Positions 7,224 to 53,556 of a stretch of 64,000 bases of DNA are shown here, piece after piece. Made by a program: the position numbers and the translations under genes. Source of the DNA: a virus (Duplodnaviria > Caudoviricetes). Every line of letters begins with the position of its first letter. Positions within the stretch are counted from its first letter, which is position 1. The notes under the pieces are model-generated. The model ran no database searches and was not told the DNA's origin. It saw only the letters and a list, made by a program, of their open reading frames with translations. The stretch covers positions 23,831 through 87,830 of the IMG/VR virus record IMGVR_UViG_3300037067_007090, one strand, 5' to 3'.

Positions 7224-7408
7224 AAGATGGTTATAAATTAACAATATTTTTAAGTGTTATAGTAATAATATTGGCAATATTTATACATGGCACAGTTATT
7301 CATTTAACACAAGTGGGTGAATTTCAAAAATGTGTAAATGCAACACTTTCTGATCCACTCTATTCCACATTTGCATGTGATAGACCGGGATGGTGGTTTG
7401 GAATATGA
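7220..7408 (+). CDS. small membrane protein
   Basis: one hydrophobic segment; ATGA overlaps with neighbours. Confidence 0.6.
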   Translation: MKDGYKLTIFLSVIVIILAIFIHGTVIHLTQVGEFQKCVNATLSDPLYSTFACDRPGWWFGI

Positions 7409-9882
7409 AAATCCTTTTTATCTTACCTAGATTTAATAAAGGTTTCGGAACTGTCTACAATGAAAACGAAACCGGTATTGACTATGATTACTTAATGCCC
7501 GTGGGAATGCCCTACATCGCTTCTTATCTCAAACACAATGGATGTGATGTCTCGGCATTAAACCTTAATCACACACCCGGATTGGTTAAAAACATTGTAC
7601 AAAAAACTATTACTGACACTCACTATGATTTCGTATTCACCGGCACAATTTCCATAATGTATCCCGCTGTGCGCGATATAATAAAATATGTACACGAAGC
7701 ATCTCCCAATACAATAACCGTCTGTGGTGGAGGTATCATTTCGTCTAACCCCGAACTAATGATGAAACTTATTAATCCACATTACGGGATTATTTTTGAG
7801 GGTGAAGAAACAGCATTAGAGTTGATACAAACTATTGAGAAGGGGCAATCTGTGGAAAATGTTAAAGGTATTATTTATTCAACAACATGGCCTATTCCAA
7901 CGTTTACTAAAACACAACCACGCCCCCAAATCAAAAACCTAGATGCACTCCCGTTTCCCGATCTTGAACTATTCGGTTATTCCGAATACTTGAAACACCA
8001 AGAACTTGGCGGTTGGAATCAATATCCACGAGATTATCCACCGCGCCCGTATATGTTGGTTTCAGCGCGCGGTTGTTCGGCAAATTGTTTATCAGGAGAC
8101 ACTTTAATTGCAACCACAAATGGCAACATTAAAATAAAAGATCTCGTTGGGCAGACCCCAAAAGTTCTTACACGAGATCCAATTACAAAAGATGTATTAT
8201 ATGCACAGTCCTCAATAGTTGCTAAAACCGGAGAAAATAAAAATCTCGTTAGAGTTTCATTTAAAGAGGGGGGATATATTGACTGTACACCAGATCACAA
8301 ATTTGTAAAATTTTTAAACTCAAACCAATATGTCCCGTTGAGAGAGTATGAAACGGAAGCACAATTTTTGAGACCCGGTGATAGTGTTCGTGCTGTTCAT
8401 TATAAATTGAGCACCACTGGTTACACGATTATAATATGGGGAAGGAAAAAGCATCGATATCAGCACACTTTAATAATGGAATCTATGATTGGAAGGAAAC
8501 TCTCACAATACGAAAGGGTTCATCACAATGATCATAATCAAATAAATAATGTTGAAAAAAATTTAACACTTACCGACAATCATAAACATATCCCAACTTA
8601 CCATCCAGAACTATCACAACGTATGAAAGATAATAATCCCGCAAAAAATCTACCACACGAATTTTTTGTGCAACGCGGAAAAGAACAACGTGGTAAAGTT
8701 CGCTCTATAGAATCCAGAATGAATTATAAAGCATCCAAAACGGGGAATAAAAATCCGATGTGGAAAGGTGGTTGTGGAAGAACAACAAAATCCCGTATAC
8801 CCGGGCAACCAGATGTAAATCACGTAGTTAAAAGCGTTGAACCACTAGATGGGTTACATAATACGTATTGTTTAGAAGTGCCGGGATATAATTGGTTCTA
8901 TGCCAACGACGTTCTTGTTCATAATTGCACATTTTGCTACCACACAACCGGCCCAAAATACCGCTACCGTTCCGCAGAAAATATAATGTCAGAAATCAAA
9001 TACGTTGTTGAAAAATACCACATTAACTTCTTCACATTTCTTGACGAATTGTTTTCATACGATAAAGCGCGCGCACTTGAATTCTGCCGACAATTTAAAG
9101 AATATCAGAAAACCATTCCGTGGCGAATTGAAATGTATTGCAATCTGCGCGTTGATTGCGCGGACGCAGAACTTCTTGATGCCATGAAATCCTGTGGGAA
9201 TGTAGTTATCGGATTAGGTCTCGAAAGTTACAACCAAAAAGTTCTCGATTCAATGCGAAAACACATAACACCCGCGCAGATTGAAACCACGCTTGGAATG
9301 ATCGCAGAAAGAAATCTTGTTCCGCAAGGGGGGTTCATCTTTGGAGATAATGCAGAAACACTTTCCACCGCACGCACTACTTTACAATTCATTCGAGAAC
9401 ACCCACATCTTTCACGAGGTGGTTTATTTATGGGCTTTATTATTCCGTTTCCCGGGACCGCTATTTATAAACATGCTTTACAAAATGGAATCATAAAAGA
9501 TGAAATAGAATTTATTAATAAATTGACAAGCACGGATTATAATTATGATAACGTATGTAATCTCACAAATTTATCAGATGAAGATTTTGACACGTTGAAA
9601 AATGAAGTGTTCACTTTAAAATACACAGCAATTCCCGTATCTGTTCCAACAAAAATAACCAATGATGAAATCTTTGTAAAATGCCCCCATTGTGGGAAGA
9701 TGCAAACTTATAAAACAACTAAACGACCACATGCGCAATTCAGCGTGGGGGTAATTTGTAATAACCCCGAATGTAATGGAAGATTTGAAATGGGCACACG
9801 ATATATTCAATTGGGGAGACTCGCTGTAAAGTTATTGGGATTTAAAAGAATGCGACGGATTAAAAATTGGATGGGGATTTGA
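7405..9882 (+). CDS. cobalamin-binding radical SAM protein (class B methylase-like), intein-containing
   Basis: N-terminal B12-binding domain (PVGMPYIASYLK, VCGGG, FEGEETALEL); spliced motif RGCSAN/CTFC = CxxxCxxC; FLDELF, GLES, GFIFG. Start placed at ATG 7405 (MKILFILP). Confidence 0.9.
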   Translation: MKILFILPRFNKGFGTVYNENETGIDYDYLMPVGMPYIASYLKHNGCDVSALNLNHTPGLVKNIVQKTITDTHYDFVFTGTISIMYPAVRDIIKYVHEASPNTITVCGGGIISSNPELMMKLINPHYGIIFEGEETALELIQTIEKGQSVENVKGIIYSTTWPIPTFTKTQPRPQIKNLDALPFPDLELFGYSEYLKHQELGGWNQYPRDYPPRPYMLVSARGCSANCLSGDTLIATTNGNIKIKDLVGQTPKVLTRDPITKDVLYAQSSIVAKTGENKNLVRVSFKEGGYIDCTPDHKFVKFLNSNQYVPLREYETEAQFLRPGDSVRAVHYKLSTTGYTIIIWGRKKHRYQHTLIMESMIGRKLSQYERVHHNDHNQINNVEKNLTLTDNHKHIPTYHPELSQRMKDNNPAKNLPHEFFVQRGKEQRGKVRSIESRMNYKASKTGNKNPMWKGGCGRTTKSRIPGQPDVNHVVKSVEPLDGLHNTYCLEVPGYNWFYANDVLVHNCTFCYHTTGPKYRYRSAENIMSEIKYVVEKYHINFFTFLDELFSYDKARALEFCRQFKEYQKTIPWRIEMYCNLRVDCADAELLDAMKSCGNVVIGLGLESYNQKVLDSMRKHITPAQIETTLGMIAERNLVPQGGFIFGDNAETLSTARTTLQFIREHPHLSRGGLFMGFIIPFPGTAIYKHALQNGIIKDEIEFINKLTSTDYNYDNVCNLTNLSDEDFDTLKNEVFTLKYTAIPVSVPTKITNDEIFVKCPHCGKMQTYKTTKRPHAQFSVGVICNNPECNGRFEMGTRYIQLGRLAVKLLGFKRMRRIKNWMGI
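8086..8925 (+). mobile_element. intein (280 aa) with HNH homing endonuclease
   Basis: begins CLSGDT, block B DCTPDHKF, HNH core RVHHNDHNQINNVEKNL, ends ANDVLVHN followed by Cys+1. Confidence 0.92.
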
Positions 9883-31399: not shown

Positions 31400-31733
31400 G
31401 TTAAATAAATATAATTAACTTAATAACTTTTGTTTTACTTAATTATTTTTAATTAACTTATTAAACTACATGTTCAATCATTATAAATAAATTTGATTTA
31501 ACATGATTAATTATTATAATATATTGTAAATATATTTTATTTAACTTTTCATATTTATTAATCATTTCTATTAAATAGCAAGTTCACAAAGTTCACAAAG
31601 TTCACAAAGTTCACAAAGAGTACGTAGTTATCATACCCTATTTTTTAACGTCGTAGTTACTTCTATAATAGATAGGGTCTGTGAACTTTGTGAATTTTGT
31701 GCGTTATGTGAGCTTTGTGCGTTTTGTGAACTT
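31400..31733. repeat. putative replication origin: AT-rich tract plus inverted 9-bp iteron arrays
   Basis: AT-rich 31400-31579; AAGTTCACA x4 (31580-31615); TGTGAACTT-like x6 in the opposite orientation (31680-31733); directly after the primase gene. Confidence 0.75.
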
Positions 31734-36792: not shown

Positions 36793-36873
36793 AAACGGAA
36801 TAAATGGGATTTTAGATATTTTTTGTTATTTTTATATAGAAACATTTATATACTATCAATTACAATATTGTAA

Positions 36874-36984
36874 CACACTTTGATAAAGTGATTTTGTAAT
36901 GCAATGTGATGTGATGTGTTGTCATGTTCTGTATTGTTTTGTGATGTAATGTTATCTGGCGTATTGTAATGTTTTCTACTGTAT
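36874..36984 (+). ncRNA. hairpin + TGT-NN pentamer array (18 units); putative guide-like RNA
   Basis: BRE/TATA AGAAACATTTATATA ~36838-36852; hairpin CACTTT-GAT-AAAGTG 36876-36890; units TGTAA TGCAA TGTGA TGTGA TGTGT TGTCA TGTTC TGTAT TGTTT TGTGA TGTAA TGTTA TCTGG CGTAT TGTAA TGTTT TCTAC TGTAT (36895-36984). Confidence 0.65.
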
Positions 36985-38508
36985 GGATCGAGTGAGATTT
37001 AATATCTCACTCTCATTTTTACGTTCGTACAGACTCCATGCTCCGGAAAAAACTTCTGTATATTCGTCATTTACCCTTTTTACAATATTTTTCTTCTCGA
37101 TGGAATCTAATCCAAACCAACCATCCGCTTTCCCCAAAGGTCCATCTGCGAGGATATATCTATTAGAATAGTTCATAATACACATATATTCTTCTTTGTA
37201 TGCCGGCAACGTACTTACAATTGTTCGGTTTGGATTCATTCTCTGTATAACTAATGGTGCGACGTAGCGGCAACTACTATTCGTAGAAAAATAGTACGGA
37301 GCCGATCCCGTATCGAGATACAAAAGTGTATTTTCTTTAGATAAATTAAACTTTATTTCAATTGCATTTGCATTTTCATTGAAATAATTGTTCATCTTCA
37401 ACTCCTGAACGCCGTAATTTTGTTCTAGACCCCAGATTGGTTGTGGACTATAAAGAATGCACCACATTGCGAATAGAACGAGGATTGATGCGGATACAAC
37501 ATTTTCGCGCTTAATTTTTTTAGTTATCCCTCTTTCCCTTGGTGTGTCTATCTCGTAAAGCACAATACCGACGATGGCAGGGAGAAGAAAAACGTAATAC
37601 TGGTACGCAAAACTCTCGCTTTGATAAAAAACCACAAATAACGGGGCTAAAAATGAAATTACAAACCATTTTGCGCGCGGATCGCGAATATGATTTTTTA
37701 ACCACACGCCACTGTATATAATTCCGATGCCAATACAGGGAATATATATACTCATCGAGATTACTGTTGCAATACCGGTTACTCCGATTTGCCCTATCCA
37801 ATCATATTCACCCACGTGACTTAAAATTGGAGCCATGAGAATGTCAGGGATAATTTGTGGCCATACAAAAATATCTGCCGCGAGGAATGCCAAACCCATT
37901 AATATGAAACCAATCACACCACGAATCAAATCTATATGTTTATTAAAAATCAATACGATACACACGGCGGAAACTATAAGGCACCCCGTTGTGCCTTTAA
38001 CCAACAATACCCAAATTAAAAGTGCGCCGGCGATATAGTGCCAAAGATTACTCTTCTCCACGAAGAGCGCGCATGAAATCATTGCGAAAATAATTGCTAA
38101 AAATTCAGCCTGTAAAATATTTAAATTGAGCGCGCAGAACATTCCGAAGAAGCAGAGGAGGAACGAGTATTTTACCTTTAATATATTTTTTGAAAATAAC
38201 CACGATGCAAAAATAACTAAAGCGACCGCAACACATTTAATTATCGGTTCCTGTAAGGCGTGATTTGAGAATGGGACAAAGATATTAGTAAACAACGCAA
38301 TGAGAAATTCACATATGTGATTCCCAACCGGTTTTATTTCCCAAAAACCGCCGTAAACATTTTGTGGGAATGATAGGTATTTTATCCCTAATTCCTCAAT
38401 TCCGTAAAAAATCCGAACGTCATTAGTAAGAGGCGAAAGTATAGAACCAACTGCCACTATTGGAAACATTATAAAATATAACAACTTCTCGAAAATCGTA
38501 AACGCCAT
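36976..38508 (-). CDS. polytopic membrane protein, possibly GT-C-fold glycosyltransferase
   Basis: many TM segments, acidic residues in the first loop (NDVRIF..IE), EIKP motif, soluble C-terminal domain. Confidence 0.55.
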   Translation of the reverse strand: MAFTIFEKLLYFIMFPIVAVGSILSPLTNDVRIFYGIEELGIKYLSFPQNVYGGFWEIKPVGNHICEFLIALFTNIFVPFSNHALQEPIIKCVAVALVIFASWLFSKNILKVKYSFLLCFFGMFCALNLNILQAEFLAIIFAMISCALFVEKSNLWHYIAGALLIWVLLVKGTTGCLIVSAVCIVLIFNKHIDLIRGVIGFILMGLAFLAADIFVWPQIIPDILMAPILSHVGEYDWIGQIGVTGIATVISMSIYIPCIGIGIIYSGVWLKNHIRDPRAKWFVISFLAPLFVVFYQSESFAYQYYVFLLPAIVGIVLYEIDTPRERGITKKIKRENVVSASILVLFAMWCILYSPQPIWGLEQNYGVQELKMNNYFNENANAIEIKFNLSKENTLLYLDTGSAPYYFSTNSSCRYVAPLVIQRMNPNRTIVSTLPAYKEEYMCIMNYSNRYILADGPLGKADGWFGLDSIEKKNIVKRVNDEYTEVFSGAWSLYERKNESEILNLTRSIQ

Positions 38509-39657: not shown

Positions 39658-39879
39658 ATGAATCATAAAACAAAAGGAAACGATACTCTCCGCCAACGGT
39701 TAAAATTATTTTTAAATAAAATACCTAGTGGGAAAGAAATCGAAACAAATCACTTGGTCATGGAACTTTCAAAACTCAATAAGAATTATTCTTTGAATTC
39801 AGCGCGCGTAACTAATCTTTTAAAAGAAAACCGAGAAGTCGTTAGATTTATTAGATCTGGGATTTGGTTGAAACTATAA
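39658..39879 (+). CDS. small basic winged-helix-like protein
   Basis: 73 aa, basic, ends VVRFIRSGIWLKL. Confidence 0.5.
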   Translation: MNHKTKGNDTLRQRLKLFLNKIPSGKEIETNHLVMELSKLNKNYSLNSARVTNLLKENREVVRFIRSGIWLKL

Positions 39880-40738: not shown

Positions 40739-41203
40739 ATGCGCGTTAAAATTATATTAATCGCAACACTTGTTGTTATAAGTGCGTTAGTATGTTCGGT
40801 CGGCGCAATGCCCGATCCAAATAAATATGCTCCTGTTGTCATTAATAACGGAGATGGAACCGGCTCTCTATACATCCAAGCAATGTGTGGGCATACACTA
40901 ATAACTAAAGATGTTATTATTCAAGAAGTTGTTCTGAAAGATGAAAAATATAATCTGGGAACAATGAACGCTCTTATTCAAAAAGATAATCTTAATCTAT
41001 ATAACCCGGTTGGAGAAAATAAAACCATTGAACTAGATGCCAATGGAAAGTATGATGCATTTTTTAAACCCGGTATATATGCATTAACATTCTTAAATGA
41101 ACAAGCAGCCGGGAATGAATATGCTATTGCACAAGTTAATGCGAACTACAAAACGCAGATAAACTTTGCTGGGCATGGAGTTACGAAAGCGGATGAAAAT
41201 TAA
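40739..41203 (+). CDS. secreted hypothetical protein
   Basis: signal peptide; own BRE/TATA (AGAAACCTTTAACTA). Confidence 0.65.
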   Translation: MRVKIILIATLVVISALVCSVGAMPDPNKYAPVVINNGDGTGSLYIQAMCGHTLITKDVIIQEVVLKDEKYNLGTMNALIQKDNLNLYNPVGENKTIELDANGKYDAFFKPGIYALTFLNEQAAGNEYAIAQVNANYKTQINFAGHGVTKADEN

Positions 41204-41269
41204 AAATTAATTATTATTAACTTTTTTATTACCAAAAGATATAAATATTATTAAAGTTTATTATTATAT

Positions 41270-41362
41270 ACCGTTGTTGAAACGGGTTTGGTTGGGTAAG
41301 GTTTGTTTTGGTGCGGCAATGCCGGGCAAGGTATGTTACGGTTGGGTCGGTTTTGGTAAGGA
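41270..41362 (+). ncRNA. hairpin + GGY-NN pentamer array (16 units); putative guide-like RNA
   Basis: TATA-like AAAAGATATAAATA ~41234-41247; hairpin CCGTT-GTTGA-AACGG 41271-41285; units from 41285: GGTTT GGTTG GGTAA GGTTT GTTTT GGTGC GGCAA TGCCG GGCAA GGTAT GTTAC GGTTG GGTCG GTTTT GGTAA GGA. Confidence 0.7.
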
Positions 41363-41363
41363 A

Positions 41364-42470
41364 TTAAAACTTGGGTGAATTTTCCACCCAAGTTATTCTT
41401 CTATTCATCAAAAAATTCCAAATATATCCGATTACTATTCCTATAGCATTTCCTATTAAATAGTTTATTCCTACGAATGTTAGTGCCACCAAAACAGTAA
41501 CATTTATTATCATTGATCCAATACAGATTGAATTATAACTAAACATTCTGTGAAGGAATGATTTTTGGCATTTTGCTCCTTTAAATGTAAAATTATCATT
41601 CATTAAAAAATTTGTTATAATACTTATTTCTATCGCTAGGAAACTTGCAAAAACCAAAGGCGTATTAAAAACTTCTTTGAACACGGACAAACAAATCATA
41701 TTTGTTGCCACTCCGATAAGACCAACGATCCCAAATTTTACCATCTTTCTTAATTCTTCTCTTCCACGTCCGGGGAACAATGCATTATCAATAAATTGTT
41801 TTGCGAATTGAATAATTGTGGATTTCTTTAATTTGCTTTCACCCACTTTTCTGTTTGTGAAAACATACGGTAATTCTTTCACTATAGTCCAATGGCATTT
41901 TGAAAGAATCTCCAATAAGATTTTATATCCACACCGTGGGTTTAATGAAGGTGTGTGCATTATTAAATCCTTTTTTGCTCCGAAGAATCCGGAAATTGGA
42001 TCGGTAATTTTCGGGAAAAGGAGGCGACCGAGGAATGTTGCCCCGAAAGAAATAACACGACGTTTTAAAGGCCAGTCTTTGATACCACCATTTGGCATAT
42101 ATCTTGACCCAATTGCGATATCTACATTATTGTTTTTTATTTCATTGAACATTGCAGGAATAATTTCTATTGAGTGCGATAAATCTGCGTCCGTCACTAC
42201 CACCACGTTTCCGCGCGCTTTATTTATTCCGGCAATAACAGATTGGGAAAGTCCCGGATCTTTTGTGCGCGTTATTAAAACCACGGGATACTTCCTAATG
42301 ATAAGATCGGTAACAATAAGTTGTGTCTTATCCGTGGAAGAATCATCGACAACGATTATTTCAAAAGTTATAGTGGTGAGACGAAGAGTATGAGAAATTT
42401 TTTGTATTGTGTTTTGAATGTTTTCTTCTTCGTTGTAAGTGGGGATGATTATAGAAAGAGATGGACGCAT
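41364..42470 (-). CDS. polyprenol-phosphate glycosyltransferase (DPM1-like GT2) fused to GtrA-like flippase domain
   Basis: IIIPTYNEEEN, VVDDSSTD, VTDADLSH, IGSRY, DPISGFF; C-terminal KFGIVGLIGVATN...NF..N..ITW. Confidence 0.9.
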   Translation of the reverse strand: MRPSLSIIIPTYNEEENIQNTIQKISHTLRLTTITFEIIVVDDSSTDKTQLIVTDLIIRKYPVVLITRTKDPGLSQSVIAGINKARGNVVVVTDADLSHSIEIIPAMFNEIKNNNVDIAIGSRYMPNGGIKDWPLKRRVISFGATFLGRLLFPKITDPISGFFGAKKDLIMHTPSLNPRCGYKILLEILSKCHWTIVKELPYVFTNRKVGESKLKKSTIIQFAKQFIDNALFPGRGREELRKMVKFGIVGLIGVATNMICLSVFKEVFNTPLVFASFLAIEISIITNFLMNDNFTFKGAKCQKSFLHRMFSYNSICIGSMIINVTVLVALTFVGINYLIGNAIGIVIGYIWNFLMNRRITWVENSPKF

Positions 42471-50347: not shown

Positions 50348-50794
50348 ATGTATGATTATATAGAATTAGACGTTGGTTGCCCAATCTGTGGTAATAGTAT
50401 CATTAACACTTTCCAAACAAAAGATTTGGCGTGTATGATGAATACATATCAGCCGGGTGATAAAGTTCCATCGGATTGTAGAAAAAGTAGTATTGTTACT
50501 TACACGACCTGCGACCATCACCGCGAGATAACTAAAATCGACGGCGAATTAATATTCACAATGATAACAGGATATTGGATAGAATATGAGATCCCAATTA
50601 TTGACGGAACAATAGTAAATGATCAAAATCTGTGGAAAAGGAAAGTAGAACCTACAGCGTATAATGCTTTGAGTGTTGCACCGGAAGGATATACAGAAGA
50701 AGAGTTGTATGCGATGGCGGAGAAGTTGAATGAAAAGATTGAGAAAGATATAAATATTATGAAAGCAGAAAGAATAATGAAAGGGGTTGTTTAA
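50348..50794 (+). CDS. hypothetical protein with CPICG motif
   Basis: MYDYIE..CPICG...FQTKD pattern recalled from phage proteins; GGTGA RBS. Confidence 0.6.
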   Translation: MYDYIELDVGCPICGNSIINTFQTKDLACMMNTYQPGDKVPSDCRKSSIVTYTTCDHHREITKIDGELIFTMITGYWIEYEIPIIDGTIVNDQNLWKRKVEPTAYNALSVAPEGYTEEELYAMAEKLNEKIEKDINIMKAERIMKGVV

Positions 50795-52161: not shown

Positions 52162-52241
52162 GCAACAGTAGTTTAACTGGGAAAACGTAAGTGAGGCATG
52201 CCATTTGACTTACATTGTTGGTTCGAATCCAACCCGTTGCA
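52162..52241 (+). ncRNA. tRNA-like element (80 nt) with 15-nt anticodon loop
   Basis: GCAACAG/CCGTTGC, D-stem GTTT/AAAC, TAAGT-(GAGGCATGCCATTTG)-ACTTA, GTTGG-TTCGAAT-CCAAC, A73. Confidence 0.65.
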
Positions 52242-52452: not shown

Positions 52453-53556
52453 ATGAATATGATTAGAACAATCAAGTTGAAACTAAATGTTTCTTCTGAT
52501 GCGAAGATATCTCTTTTTAAAACAATGAGAGATTATACAACCGCATTTAATATTTGTTCAACTTGGGGGTTTGATAATCATACTGCTAATAAGATAGATT
52601 GCCATAAATCAACTTATTATAAAATTCGGGAATTGATACCCAATTTTCCCTCTTCGTTGGTTCAGTGTGCAAGAGATGTTGCTTGCGCATCTTTGAAATC
52701 GGTAAAGTGTCGATATAAACCGATTCGTAAAGAACATTCGGCAATGTTATATAATTCGCAGGTTATTAGGGTTTGTTTGGAATCTGGTTACGCAACTATT
52801 GCTACTTCAAACGGTAGAGTAAAAGTTGAATTTATAGTTCCGAAGTATTATATACCATATTTAACGTGGAAAATTAAATCATCTACACTGTCTCTTCGTA
52901 AGACTGGCAATATGTTTTATTTGCATTGTCAGATTGAAACGAATACTCCCAAAATCATTCCCGATCAAATGGTTCTTGGAATCGATAGAGGCATTATTAA
53001 CATTGCGGTCTGTTCCGACAACACATTTTTTAATTCCCGGGCAGTGAAGAATACGCGGTCGCAGTACGCATATCTCCGAGCTCAATTACAGTCTAAAGGC
53101 ACTCGATCTGCTAAAAGAAAGTTAAAGAAACTTTCCGGTCGAGAAAGACGGTTTGTGACTGATGTTAATCACTGTATCTCGAAGCAAATTATACAAACCC
53201 AATATACAGTATTCGCTCTTGAAGACCTTACTAAAATTCGGGTACAAAAACGACGCGGGAAAATTTTTAATCGAAAATTGAACAATTGGTCGTTCTTTGA
53301 ACTTGAACAGTTTATCCGGTATAAAGCCGAAAATCTTGGCAAGAGGGTTATATTTATTGATGCTCGTTATACTTCTCAAAAATGTTCAATTTGCGGGCAT
53401 GTCTATAAAGGCAATCGTAATGGTTCCTCTTTTAAATGCTGTAAATGTGGATTTGAACTTCATGCTGATCTCAATGCTTCTCGTAATATAGCTCAAGATG
53501 GTATATCTGTTTTGAGTAGGCTGCCTGTCAACCAGCCAAATGTAGCGTGTCTCTGA
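52453..53556 (+). CDS. tnpB: IS200/IS605-family TnpB RNA-guided endonuclease
   Basis: RTIKLKL, RuvC-I LGIDRG, RuvC-II ALEDL, CSICG/CCKCG zinc finger, RuvC-III ADLNASRNI. Confidence 0.92.
   Translation: MNMIRTIKLKLNVSSDAKISLFKTMRDYTTAFNICSTWGFDNHTANKIDCHKSTYYKIRELIPNFPSSLVQCARDVACASLKSVKCRYKPIRKEHSAMLYNSQVIRVCLESGYATIATSNGRVKVEFIVPKYYIPYLTWKIKSSTLSLRKTGNMFYLHCQIETNTPKIIPDQMVLGIDRGIINIAVCSDNTFFNSRAVKNTRSQYAYLRAQLQSKGTRSAKRKLKKLSGRERRFVTDVNHCISKQIIQTQYTVFALEDLTKIRVQKRRGKIFNRKLNNWSFFELEQFIRYKAENLGKRVIFIDARYTSQKCSICGHVYKGNRNGSSFKCCKCGFELHADLNASRNIAQDGISVLSRLPVNQPNVACL

Follow-up and report, generated by a model that had tools for sequence, protein, structure and literature searches.

The segment at 41235-41405 of the analyzed window, a 64,000-nucleotide stretch corresponding to contig C3:23831-87830 of a large virus, is best explained as a stand-alone (solo) vrRNA gene of the VIPR system in a virus without its own vipr, a reading to which a probability of roughly 0.8 is assigned. 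In VIPR, a minimal RAMP protein (Vipr) is paired with vrRNAs that carry a structured tail behind 9 to 16 GGY/NN pentamers. The NN pairs recognize double-stranded DNA and pass over one base in each unit, usually at the wobble position of the codon, silencing is lost when NN pairing is perturbed, and related scaffolds of the forms NNNGG, YNNNG, and NNNNG exist (bioRxiv 10.64898/2026.04.26.720920). The original prediction for this locus had invoked such a system, and the system and its GGY/NN vrRNAs are real. Solo vrRNAs without vipr, published in October 2026 from satellites and from 346 VIPR-null enterobacterial phages, match themselves worse than they match rivals and can compete for Vipr, and the kind of element described here is for that reason not itself new (bioRxiv 10.64898/2026.10.15.759431).

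The array is at the place originally given, between two convergent genes at 40739-41203 (+) and 41364-42470 (−), and is preceded by a TATA-like box and a short hairpin (Table 1). The 15 NN pairs listed at that time are exactly those in the sequence, while the count of 16 pentamers has to be corrected to 15 full units with a terminal GG, and the 10-bp hairpin at 41368-41394 had been omitted from that account. The scaffold columns of the array contain G in 14 of 15, G in 12 of 15, and Y in 15 of 15 units, and both N columns are mixed. The repeat tract is unstructured (z about −1 versus shuffles), and the tail hairpin, formed by pairing of 41368-41377 with 41385-41394, has a folding energy of −15.1 kcal/mol (z = −4.9 versus shuffles) and overlaps the last codons of the downstream convergent gene. 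The same 22-nt promoter box is found again at 50744 and 58074 of the window, in front of genes; it can be read either as an archaeal BRE/TATA or as a bacterial −10 element. Termination of the transcript is likely to occur within the T-rich stretch that follows the tail. The units from the first or second to the 12th or 13th appear to form the guide core, and the last two to three seem to behave as a handle, because four out of five informative guide-target pairs described below leave the final three unmatched and because the final TAAGG unit is conserved among orthologues.

Table 1. Features of the solo guide locus, its candidate targets, and neighboring elements (window coordinates)
Feature	Position	Strand	Remarks
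Second guide-like gene	36845-37012	+	TATA 36845-36852; 5' hairpin 36876-36890; 18 TGT-NN units 36895-36984
Site in 510-aa multi-pass membrane-protein gene (36976-38508, −)	38396-38439	+	Spelled by foreign guides
73-aa protein, helix-turn-helix look by eye	39658-39879	+	56-72% identity in L046-L049 and G301
Consensus promoter box, A-rich element + TATAAATA (41239-41246)	41235-41256	+	Precedes guide gene
5' hairpin CCGTT-loop-AACGG, 5 bp	41271-41285	+	Abuts first repeat unit
15 full GGY-NN pentamers	41285-41359	+	Followed by terminal GG at 41360-41361
3' handle: last unit + GGAA, A-rich linker ending AAAC, 10-bp hairpin	41355-41394	+	
T-rich stretch, likely transcript end	41395-41405	+	From sequence and conservation
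GT2 + GtrA glycosyltransferase gene	41364-42470	−	Pfam PF00535 2e-33, PF04138 1e-21
Own-copy near-target, codons 350-364 of glycosyltransferase	41380-41423	−	21/30; skipped base = codon position 3

A scan for GGY-NN arrays on both strands of the 1.27-Mb assembly retrieved this array as the sole match, and the same scan recovered all 4 known vrRNAs of phage SUSP1. A period-5 scan of the assembly that was blind to the scaffold retrieved it again, together with a TGT-NN array at 36895-36984 and five A- or T-rich low-complexity tracts. A chance origin of the GGY-NN array is thus excluded, since it is unique in a scan that finds genuine vrRNAs and since the blind scan adds a single further array.

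Orthologous loci were found from GT2-GtrA homologues at 68 to 77% identity, which gave seven metagenome or assembly loci (L043 to L049) and two IMG/VR virus contigs. The RNA gene occupies the same place in four distinct loci (L043/L044, L045, L046, and L049). Among the five orthologous loci compared, the TATA part is invariant, the 5' hairpin is identical, and the tail is almost invariant, the last being non-independent evidence because the tail sequence doubles as coding sequence of the neighboring gene. The tail stem of L045 carries one compensatory pair change, on both sides. The orthologues differ in their NN pairs and in the number of units, which ranges from 11 to 16, and when the units are anchored at the right end, scaffold identity is 0.65 versus an NN identity of 0.43. 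Comparison of homologues had been set in advance as a test of the guide reading, and its outcome, with scaffold, 5' hairpin, and tail retained while the NN pairs change, is the one that the reading expected. The array is missing at the orthologous place from L047, L048, L164, and L165, of which L164 and L048 retain a remnant of the tail. Homologues of the 73-aa protein adjoin arrays or the glycosyltransferase gene in related loci, and a role of this helix-turn-helix-like protein together with the guides is speculation. An acidic, Cys-rich protein of 178 to 180 aa is also conserved (L046 15780-16322, L047 13286-13825, and L048 5098-5634) and sits, in L046, between two solo guide genes; it was considered as a Vipr candidate and rejected, as it is not Vipr-like and is missing from this strain.

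When read with one skipped base per unit, the guide of the window (WIN-1) spells WNFLANRKITW, a C-terminal motif of the GtrA domain, and the glycosyltransferases of the closest relatives read exactly this peptide. In the virus's own copy the peptide is WNFLMNRRITW and its first Arg is encoded by AGA, so that at the letters read this copy differs from the guide by M for A, R for K, and AGA for CGN. Of all sites in the window, this one in the adjacent gene matches best; 10 positions across the assembly, including it, score at least 21 of 30. The guide matches the glycosyltransferase gene of a related IMG/VR virus (L165) at 25 of 30 letters, with 23 of 24 in units 2 to 13, and at the same site in other relatives it reaches 24/30 on L043/L044, 23/30 on L045 and L049, and 22/30 on L048. 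For this gene only the 1-nt skip works, and the base passed over is the one at the wobble position; under spacing rules with 0, 2, or 3 skipped bases, the guide tops out at 20 to 22 outside the arrays themselves. Among 200 order-shuffles compared with 255 kb of related DNA (mean, 20.8), none reaches 25/30 and one reaches 24. Any single guide-target match would thus appear only moderately strong, and the case is built on position, phase, and repetition across guides. The exact gapped patterns of all 15 units, of units 1 to 12, and of units 4 to 15 are absent from IMG/VR, and no perfect target was found there; the exact pattern of units 3 to 12 has two matches in JGI metagenomes, which were rejected because on extension they fall to chance level (22 to 23/30).

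The same code is recovered with sister guides from the related loci. Guide L046-1 matches the glycosyltransferase gene of L043 at 24/30, and L043-1 matches that of L165 at 21/24. Guides L046-2 and L047-2 match the N-terminal part of a neighboring gene for a membrane protein of 507 to 510 aa, at 24 to 26/30 in relatives; on L046's own copy of this gene, L046-2 scores 22/30, below the copies of the relatives. At the corresponding site in the window, read in the antisense direction, L047-2 reaches 23/30 and L046-2 reaches 25/30, the latter with 23 of 24 letters matched over its first 12 units. In all four sister guides, only the 1-nt skip works and the skipped base is codon position 3. Guides L045-1, L049-1, and L046-3 and the three guides of the relative G301 have no target in the related DNA compared. 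The gapped-pattern comparison that had been proposed originally therefore yields matches above chance solely with one skipped base and in wobble phase, and the guide-RNA reading is supported by these matches, by the conserved scaffold with its varying NN pairs, and by the presence of Vipr in a syntenic relative.

This relative, G301, is the IMG/VR contig IMGVR_UViG_3300035208_001463 (112.5 kb; CheckV estimate, 82%), which is syntenic with the window from 39.6 to 64 kb. It encodes a Vipr of 182 aa (81405-81953) that matches phrog_4652 (7.5e-28) and, over its full length, PDB 36pp, the “SUSP1 Vipr protein” (1.4e-11). The two proteins align end to end with 27% identity, and the G-loop GDFRP is kept. 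In G301, vipr is followed by a gene for a 111-aa protein and then by three vrRNAs. Between these vrRNAs stand hairpins whose form matches that of the 5' hairpin of the present locus, and the vrRNA tails are made of AAAC and a hairpin. The window's guide shares this layout, with CCGT..ACGG before the first unit and AAAC plus a hairpin after the last, and differs from the G301 vrRNAs in the stem sequences. In about 24 unrelated loci, genuine vrRNAs next to Vipr genes have ends of the GGTAAGGAT type. A search with four units followed by GGTAAGGAT matched 85 viral and 29 genome loci, of which about 66 were rejected as guides because they consist of plain GGTTA/GGTAA repeats within or close to genes for phage replisome organizers. 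Such repeats, seen in L051 to L054 and in about 60 other IMG/VR loci, can mislead vrRNA callers.

The same strain is also represented by a longer contig (k141_1126466 of ENA ERZ27247350; 138,947 bp), which encodes identical proteins and runs beyond the end of the window. On this contig, the slot of the G301 vipr is filled by a 369-aa zinc-finger HNH endonuclease (phrog_1271, 6e-36; L174 16303-17412), flanked by the same two genes that in G301 enclose vipr, the 111-aa gene, and the array. Neither a Vipr nor a further array was found in the part of this contig at 83-132 kb of the record, which together with contig C3 covers about 118 of its 139 kb. Likewise, no Vipr was found in the assembly with phrog_4652, the Pfam RAMP family PF03787, a profile of 120 SUSP1-clade Viprs, an iterated profile that included an archaeal Vipr, or tblastn with the G301 Vipr; this absence is one measured by profiles, which a very divergent effector would escape. 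The neighbors of the array are secreted proteins and the glycosyltransferase, with no Vipr beside it. The upstream 247-aa and 154-aa proteins were rejected as Vipr candidates, as they carry signal peptides or lipoboxes and match nothing in PDB or Pfam, and nothing RAMP-like was seen by eye or by Pfam among the other unassigned ORFs of the window. Adjacency to a Vipr gene is therefore lacking here, but it defines a full VIPR locus and not a solo vrRNA. The original statement that the window holds no RAMP-like partner is borne out and extends to the roughly 118 kb of the virus examined; with Vipr missing there and present in the syntenic relative, the guide is an orphan, as had been proposed, and is plausibly served in trans.

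The window contains a second guide-like gene with a different scaffold. Its TGT-NN units are followed by GG, a 3' hairpin (36990-37012; z = −4.2), and a T run, and this tail hairpin, too, overlaps the last codons of its convergent gene. The orthologues in the same syntenic place, L046-2 and L047-2, have a GGY scaffold, whereas in the window's array the first scaffold position is never G and is T in 16 of the 18 units. SUSP1 vrRNA4 tolerates a non-G base at this position in several units. No target emerged for the TGT-NN array, whichever spacing or 12-unit window was compared. The change from GGY to TGT within one orthologous guide gene is a natural experiment on the recognition of RNA by Vipr.

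The DNA that carries these guides is a large virus that was probably misassigned to a Patescibacteria genome. The bin's EF-Tu is that of Patescibacteria, and the assignment to a virus follows from the replication genes and from relatives that are IMG/VR virus contigs. Contig C3 carries genes for a family B DNA polymerase, a Prim-Pol, several homing endonucleases (NUMOD3/HNH), and methylases, five tRNA genes, and a phage-type replication module (AAA_24, DUF669, YqaJ, helicase, and VRR-NUC), and surface proteins of 1554 and 1900 aa are present on the virus contig. An archaeal host is likely, in view of the archaeal pilin N-terminal domain in relatives, DUF3821, and the Methanoregula relatives of the glycosyltransferase (46 to 49% identity). 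An identification of the binned genome as an archaeon by the archaeal SSU model (1054 bits on G000 contig C11 13009-14478) was rejected: the hit is most likely a bacterial 16S, and the model also matches all bacterial control genomes, so that it does not discriminate the domain. Among relatives of the binned genome, neither a DNA match nor a close glycosyltransferase was found, and GGY or TGT arrays were absent from 300 and 40 genomes; as the bin is Patescibacteria and the contig is viral, these negatives say nothing about the element.

Several other features of the window were recorded. Just after the Prim-Pol gene, at 31580-31733, there are four direct copies of the 9-mer AAGTTCACA and about six reverse complements, which look like origin iterons. 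An intein splicing domain interrupts a B12-binding radical SAM protein at 7390-9882. A tRNA-like gene at 52162-52241 was called with a four-base anticodon (gcat) and may reflect an intron or be a frameshift suppressor. A TnpB (OrfB_IS605 plus a Cas12f1-like TNB domain) lies at 52453-53556 without an adjoining TnpA, and diverged TnpB copies of the relatives sit elsewhere in the island.

Under the solo vrRNA reading, the promoter box would drive an RNA of roughly 130 nt, made of the 5' hairpin, about 12 information-bearing guide units, two or three handle units, and the hairpin tail. Vipr protomers would be supplied by a co-infecting or resident VIPR-positive relative, for example, a virus of the G301 type, and would coat the RNA with one protomer per pentamer, such that the GGY bases are hidden and the NN pairs are presented. 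The resulting filament would bind double-stranded DNA, reading it as NN-x-NN-x, and block its transcription. The predicted target is the stretch encoding the WNFLANRKITW motif in the GT2-GtrA gene of rival viruses, and the virus's own copy, placed tail-to-tail with the guide, would escape through its mismatched read letters. Loading into a foreign Vipr and silencing of a competitor in this manner may be of benefit to the virus.

The guide might instead act on its own neighbor and, with a Vipr-like protein, tune or shut down the virus's own glycosyltransferase through the partial match. The best match in the window does fall in the adjacent gene, at 21/30, and guide and target are always neighbors. 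Own copies, however, score lowest in both cases that can be compared (21 versus 22 to 25 for WIN-1 and 22 versus 24 to 26 for L046-2), silencing in the published system fails once NN pairing is disturbed, and searches of the assembly and of 83-132 kb of the same-strain contig record turned up no Vipr in the virus, which makes self-regulation unlikely. An RNA that reads no target and merely soaks up a protein, either a rival's Vipr or a TRAP-like binder of triplets, would be expected to have variable spacers where the protein makes no contact, the published solo vrRNAs can compete for Vipr, and the TGT-NN array has no detectable target. Drift of the NN pairs in such a sponge leaves unexplained the in-phase matches of up to 23/24 to genes of the neighbor family, obtained with five guides and under one spacing rule only, so that this explanation is decidedly improbable.

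The locus could also be read as a cis-acting element at the 3' ends of the two genes, concerned with convergent transcription, with antisense overlap to the glycosyltransferase mRNA, or with termination in both directions, and its pentamer rhythm would then be incidental. The tail hairpin of each of the two arrays extends into the final codons of the convergent gene, and L164 and L048 retain the tail without the array, as such an element would predict. It does not account, however, for a GGY scaffold kept over 11 to 16 units with changing NN pairs, for the handle layout linked to Vipr, or for the gapped matches; as the sole explanation it is very improbable, and a role in cis could coexist with a guide role. 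There remains a functionless repeat that arose by chance or slippage, for which only the short period speaks. The array stands alone in the 2.5 Mb of strands scanned, its units are not homogenized, and five loci conserve its promoter, hairpins, and position, in agreement with the original argument against simple slippage, and the probability of this explanation is negligible.

A wider interpretation of the solo vrRNA reading, possible but clearly tentative, is that of a selfish allele-killer cassette. Each solo vrRNA would travel linked to a resistant allele of its target, tail-to-tail with a surface-glycosylation gene and with a shared 3' end, and would silence the sensitive alleles of rivals by means of the rival's Vipr. 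The second guide with its TGT scaffold would then either guide a Vipr of altered scaffold specificity or act as a decoy, one that the rival's Vipr cannot load.

VIPR was described only in 2026, and the experiments have centered on one Escherichia coli phage and a Pseudomonas prophage. The same code, with its GGY scaffold, single skip, and wobble phase, is recovered here by sequence comparison alone in a distant, probably archaeal, large virus. What is new is the dispersal of solo guides beside the gene family that they appear to target, where the mismatched local copy suggests linked pairs of weapon and immunity; predicted targets that are accessory genes of the glycosyltransferase type and not vipr, satellites, or repressors; and a sister gene with a TGT scaffold. 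A ready-made test set comes with the locus: the guide, an allele predicted to be sensitive, another predicted to be resistant, and a relative's candidate Vipr.

Among known RNA systems, TRAP binds (G/U)AG repeats. RNAs of the TRAP type have (G/U)AG triplets spaced by 2 to 3 nt, whereas the triplets of the present arrays are GGY or TGT and not GAG or UAG. The likeness to Class 1 CRISPR crRNAs with a Cas7 backbone lies in a RAMP filament that measures the guide and in bases that are flipped at a fixed period. Unlike those systems, the locus lacks a repeat-spacer array, cas genes, and a contiguous spacer, and three of every five guide bases would be hidden.

The closest parallels are within VIPR itself. 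With the Type II VIPR of Escherichia phage SUSP1 (bioRxiv 10.64898/2026.04.26.720920 and.720927; PDB 36pp), the locus shares the pentamer scaffold, the range of 9 to 16 units, the 1-nt-skip code whose skipped base falls on the wobble position, and the use of either DNA strand. It differs in that its AAAC linker leads into a plain hairpin tail and not a pseudoknot, in that a 5' hairpin precedes the repeats, and in that no Vipr is encoded nearby. Like the solo vrRNAs of the VIPR-null SUSP1-family phages and F5 satellites, it is a GGY-NN guide gene in a genome without vipr or vap, the vipr locus has been lost at the syntenic slot, the self-match is lower than the match to relatives, and use of a rival's Vipr is presumed. 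The published solos, however, sit at the vipr-vap1 deletion, whereas here the slot holds an HNH endonuclease and the solos lie elsewhere. The published solos target vipr, other vrRNAs, satellites, and host REP elements, whereas those described here stand tail-to-tail with glycosylation genes and spell foreign alleles, and their carrier is a large, probably archaeal virus and not an enterobacterial phage.
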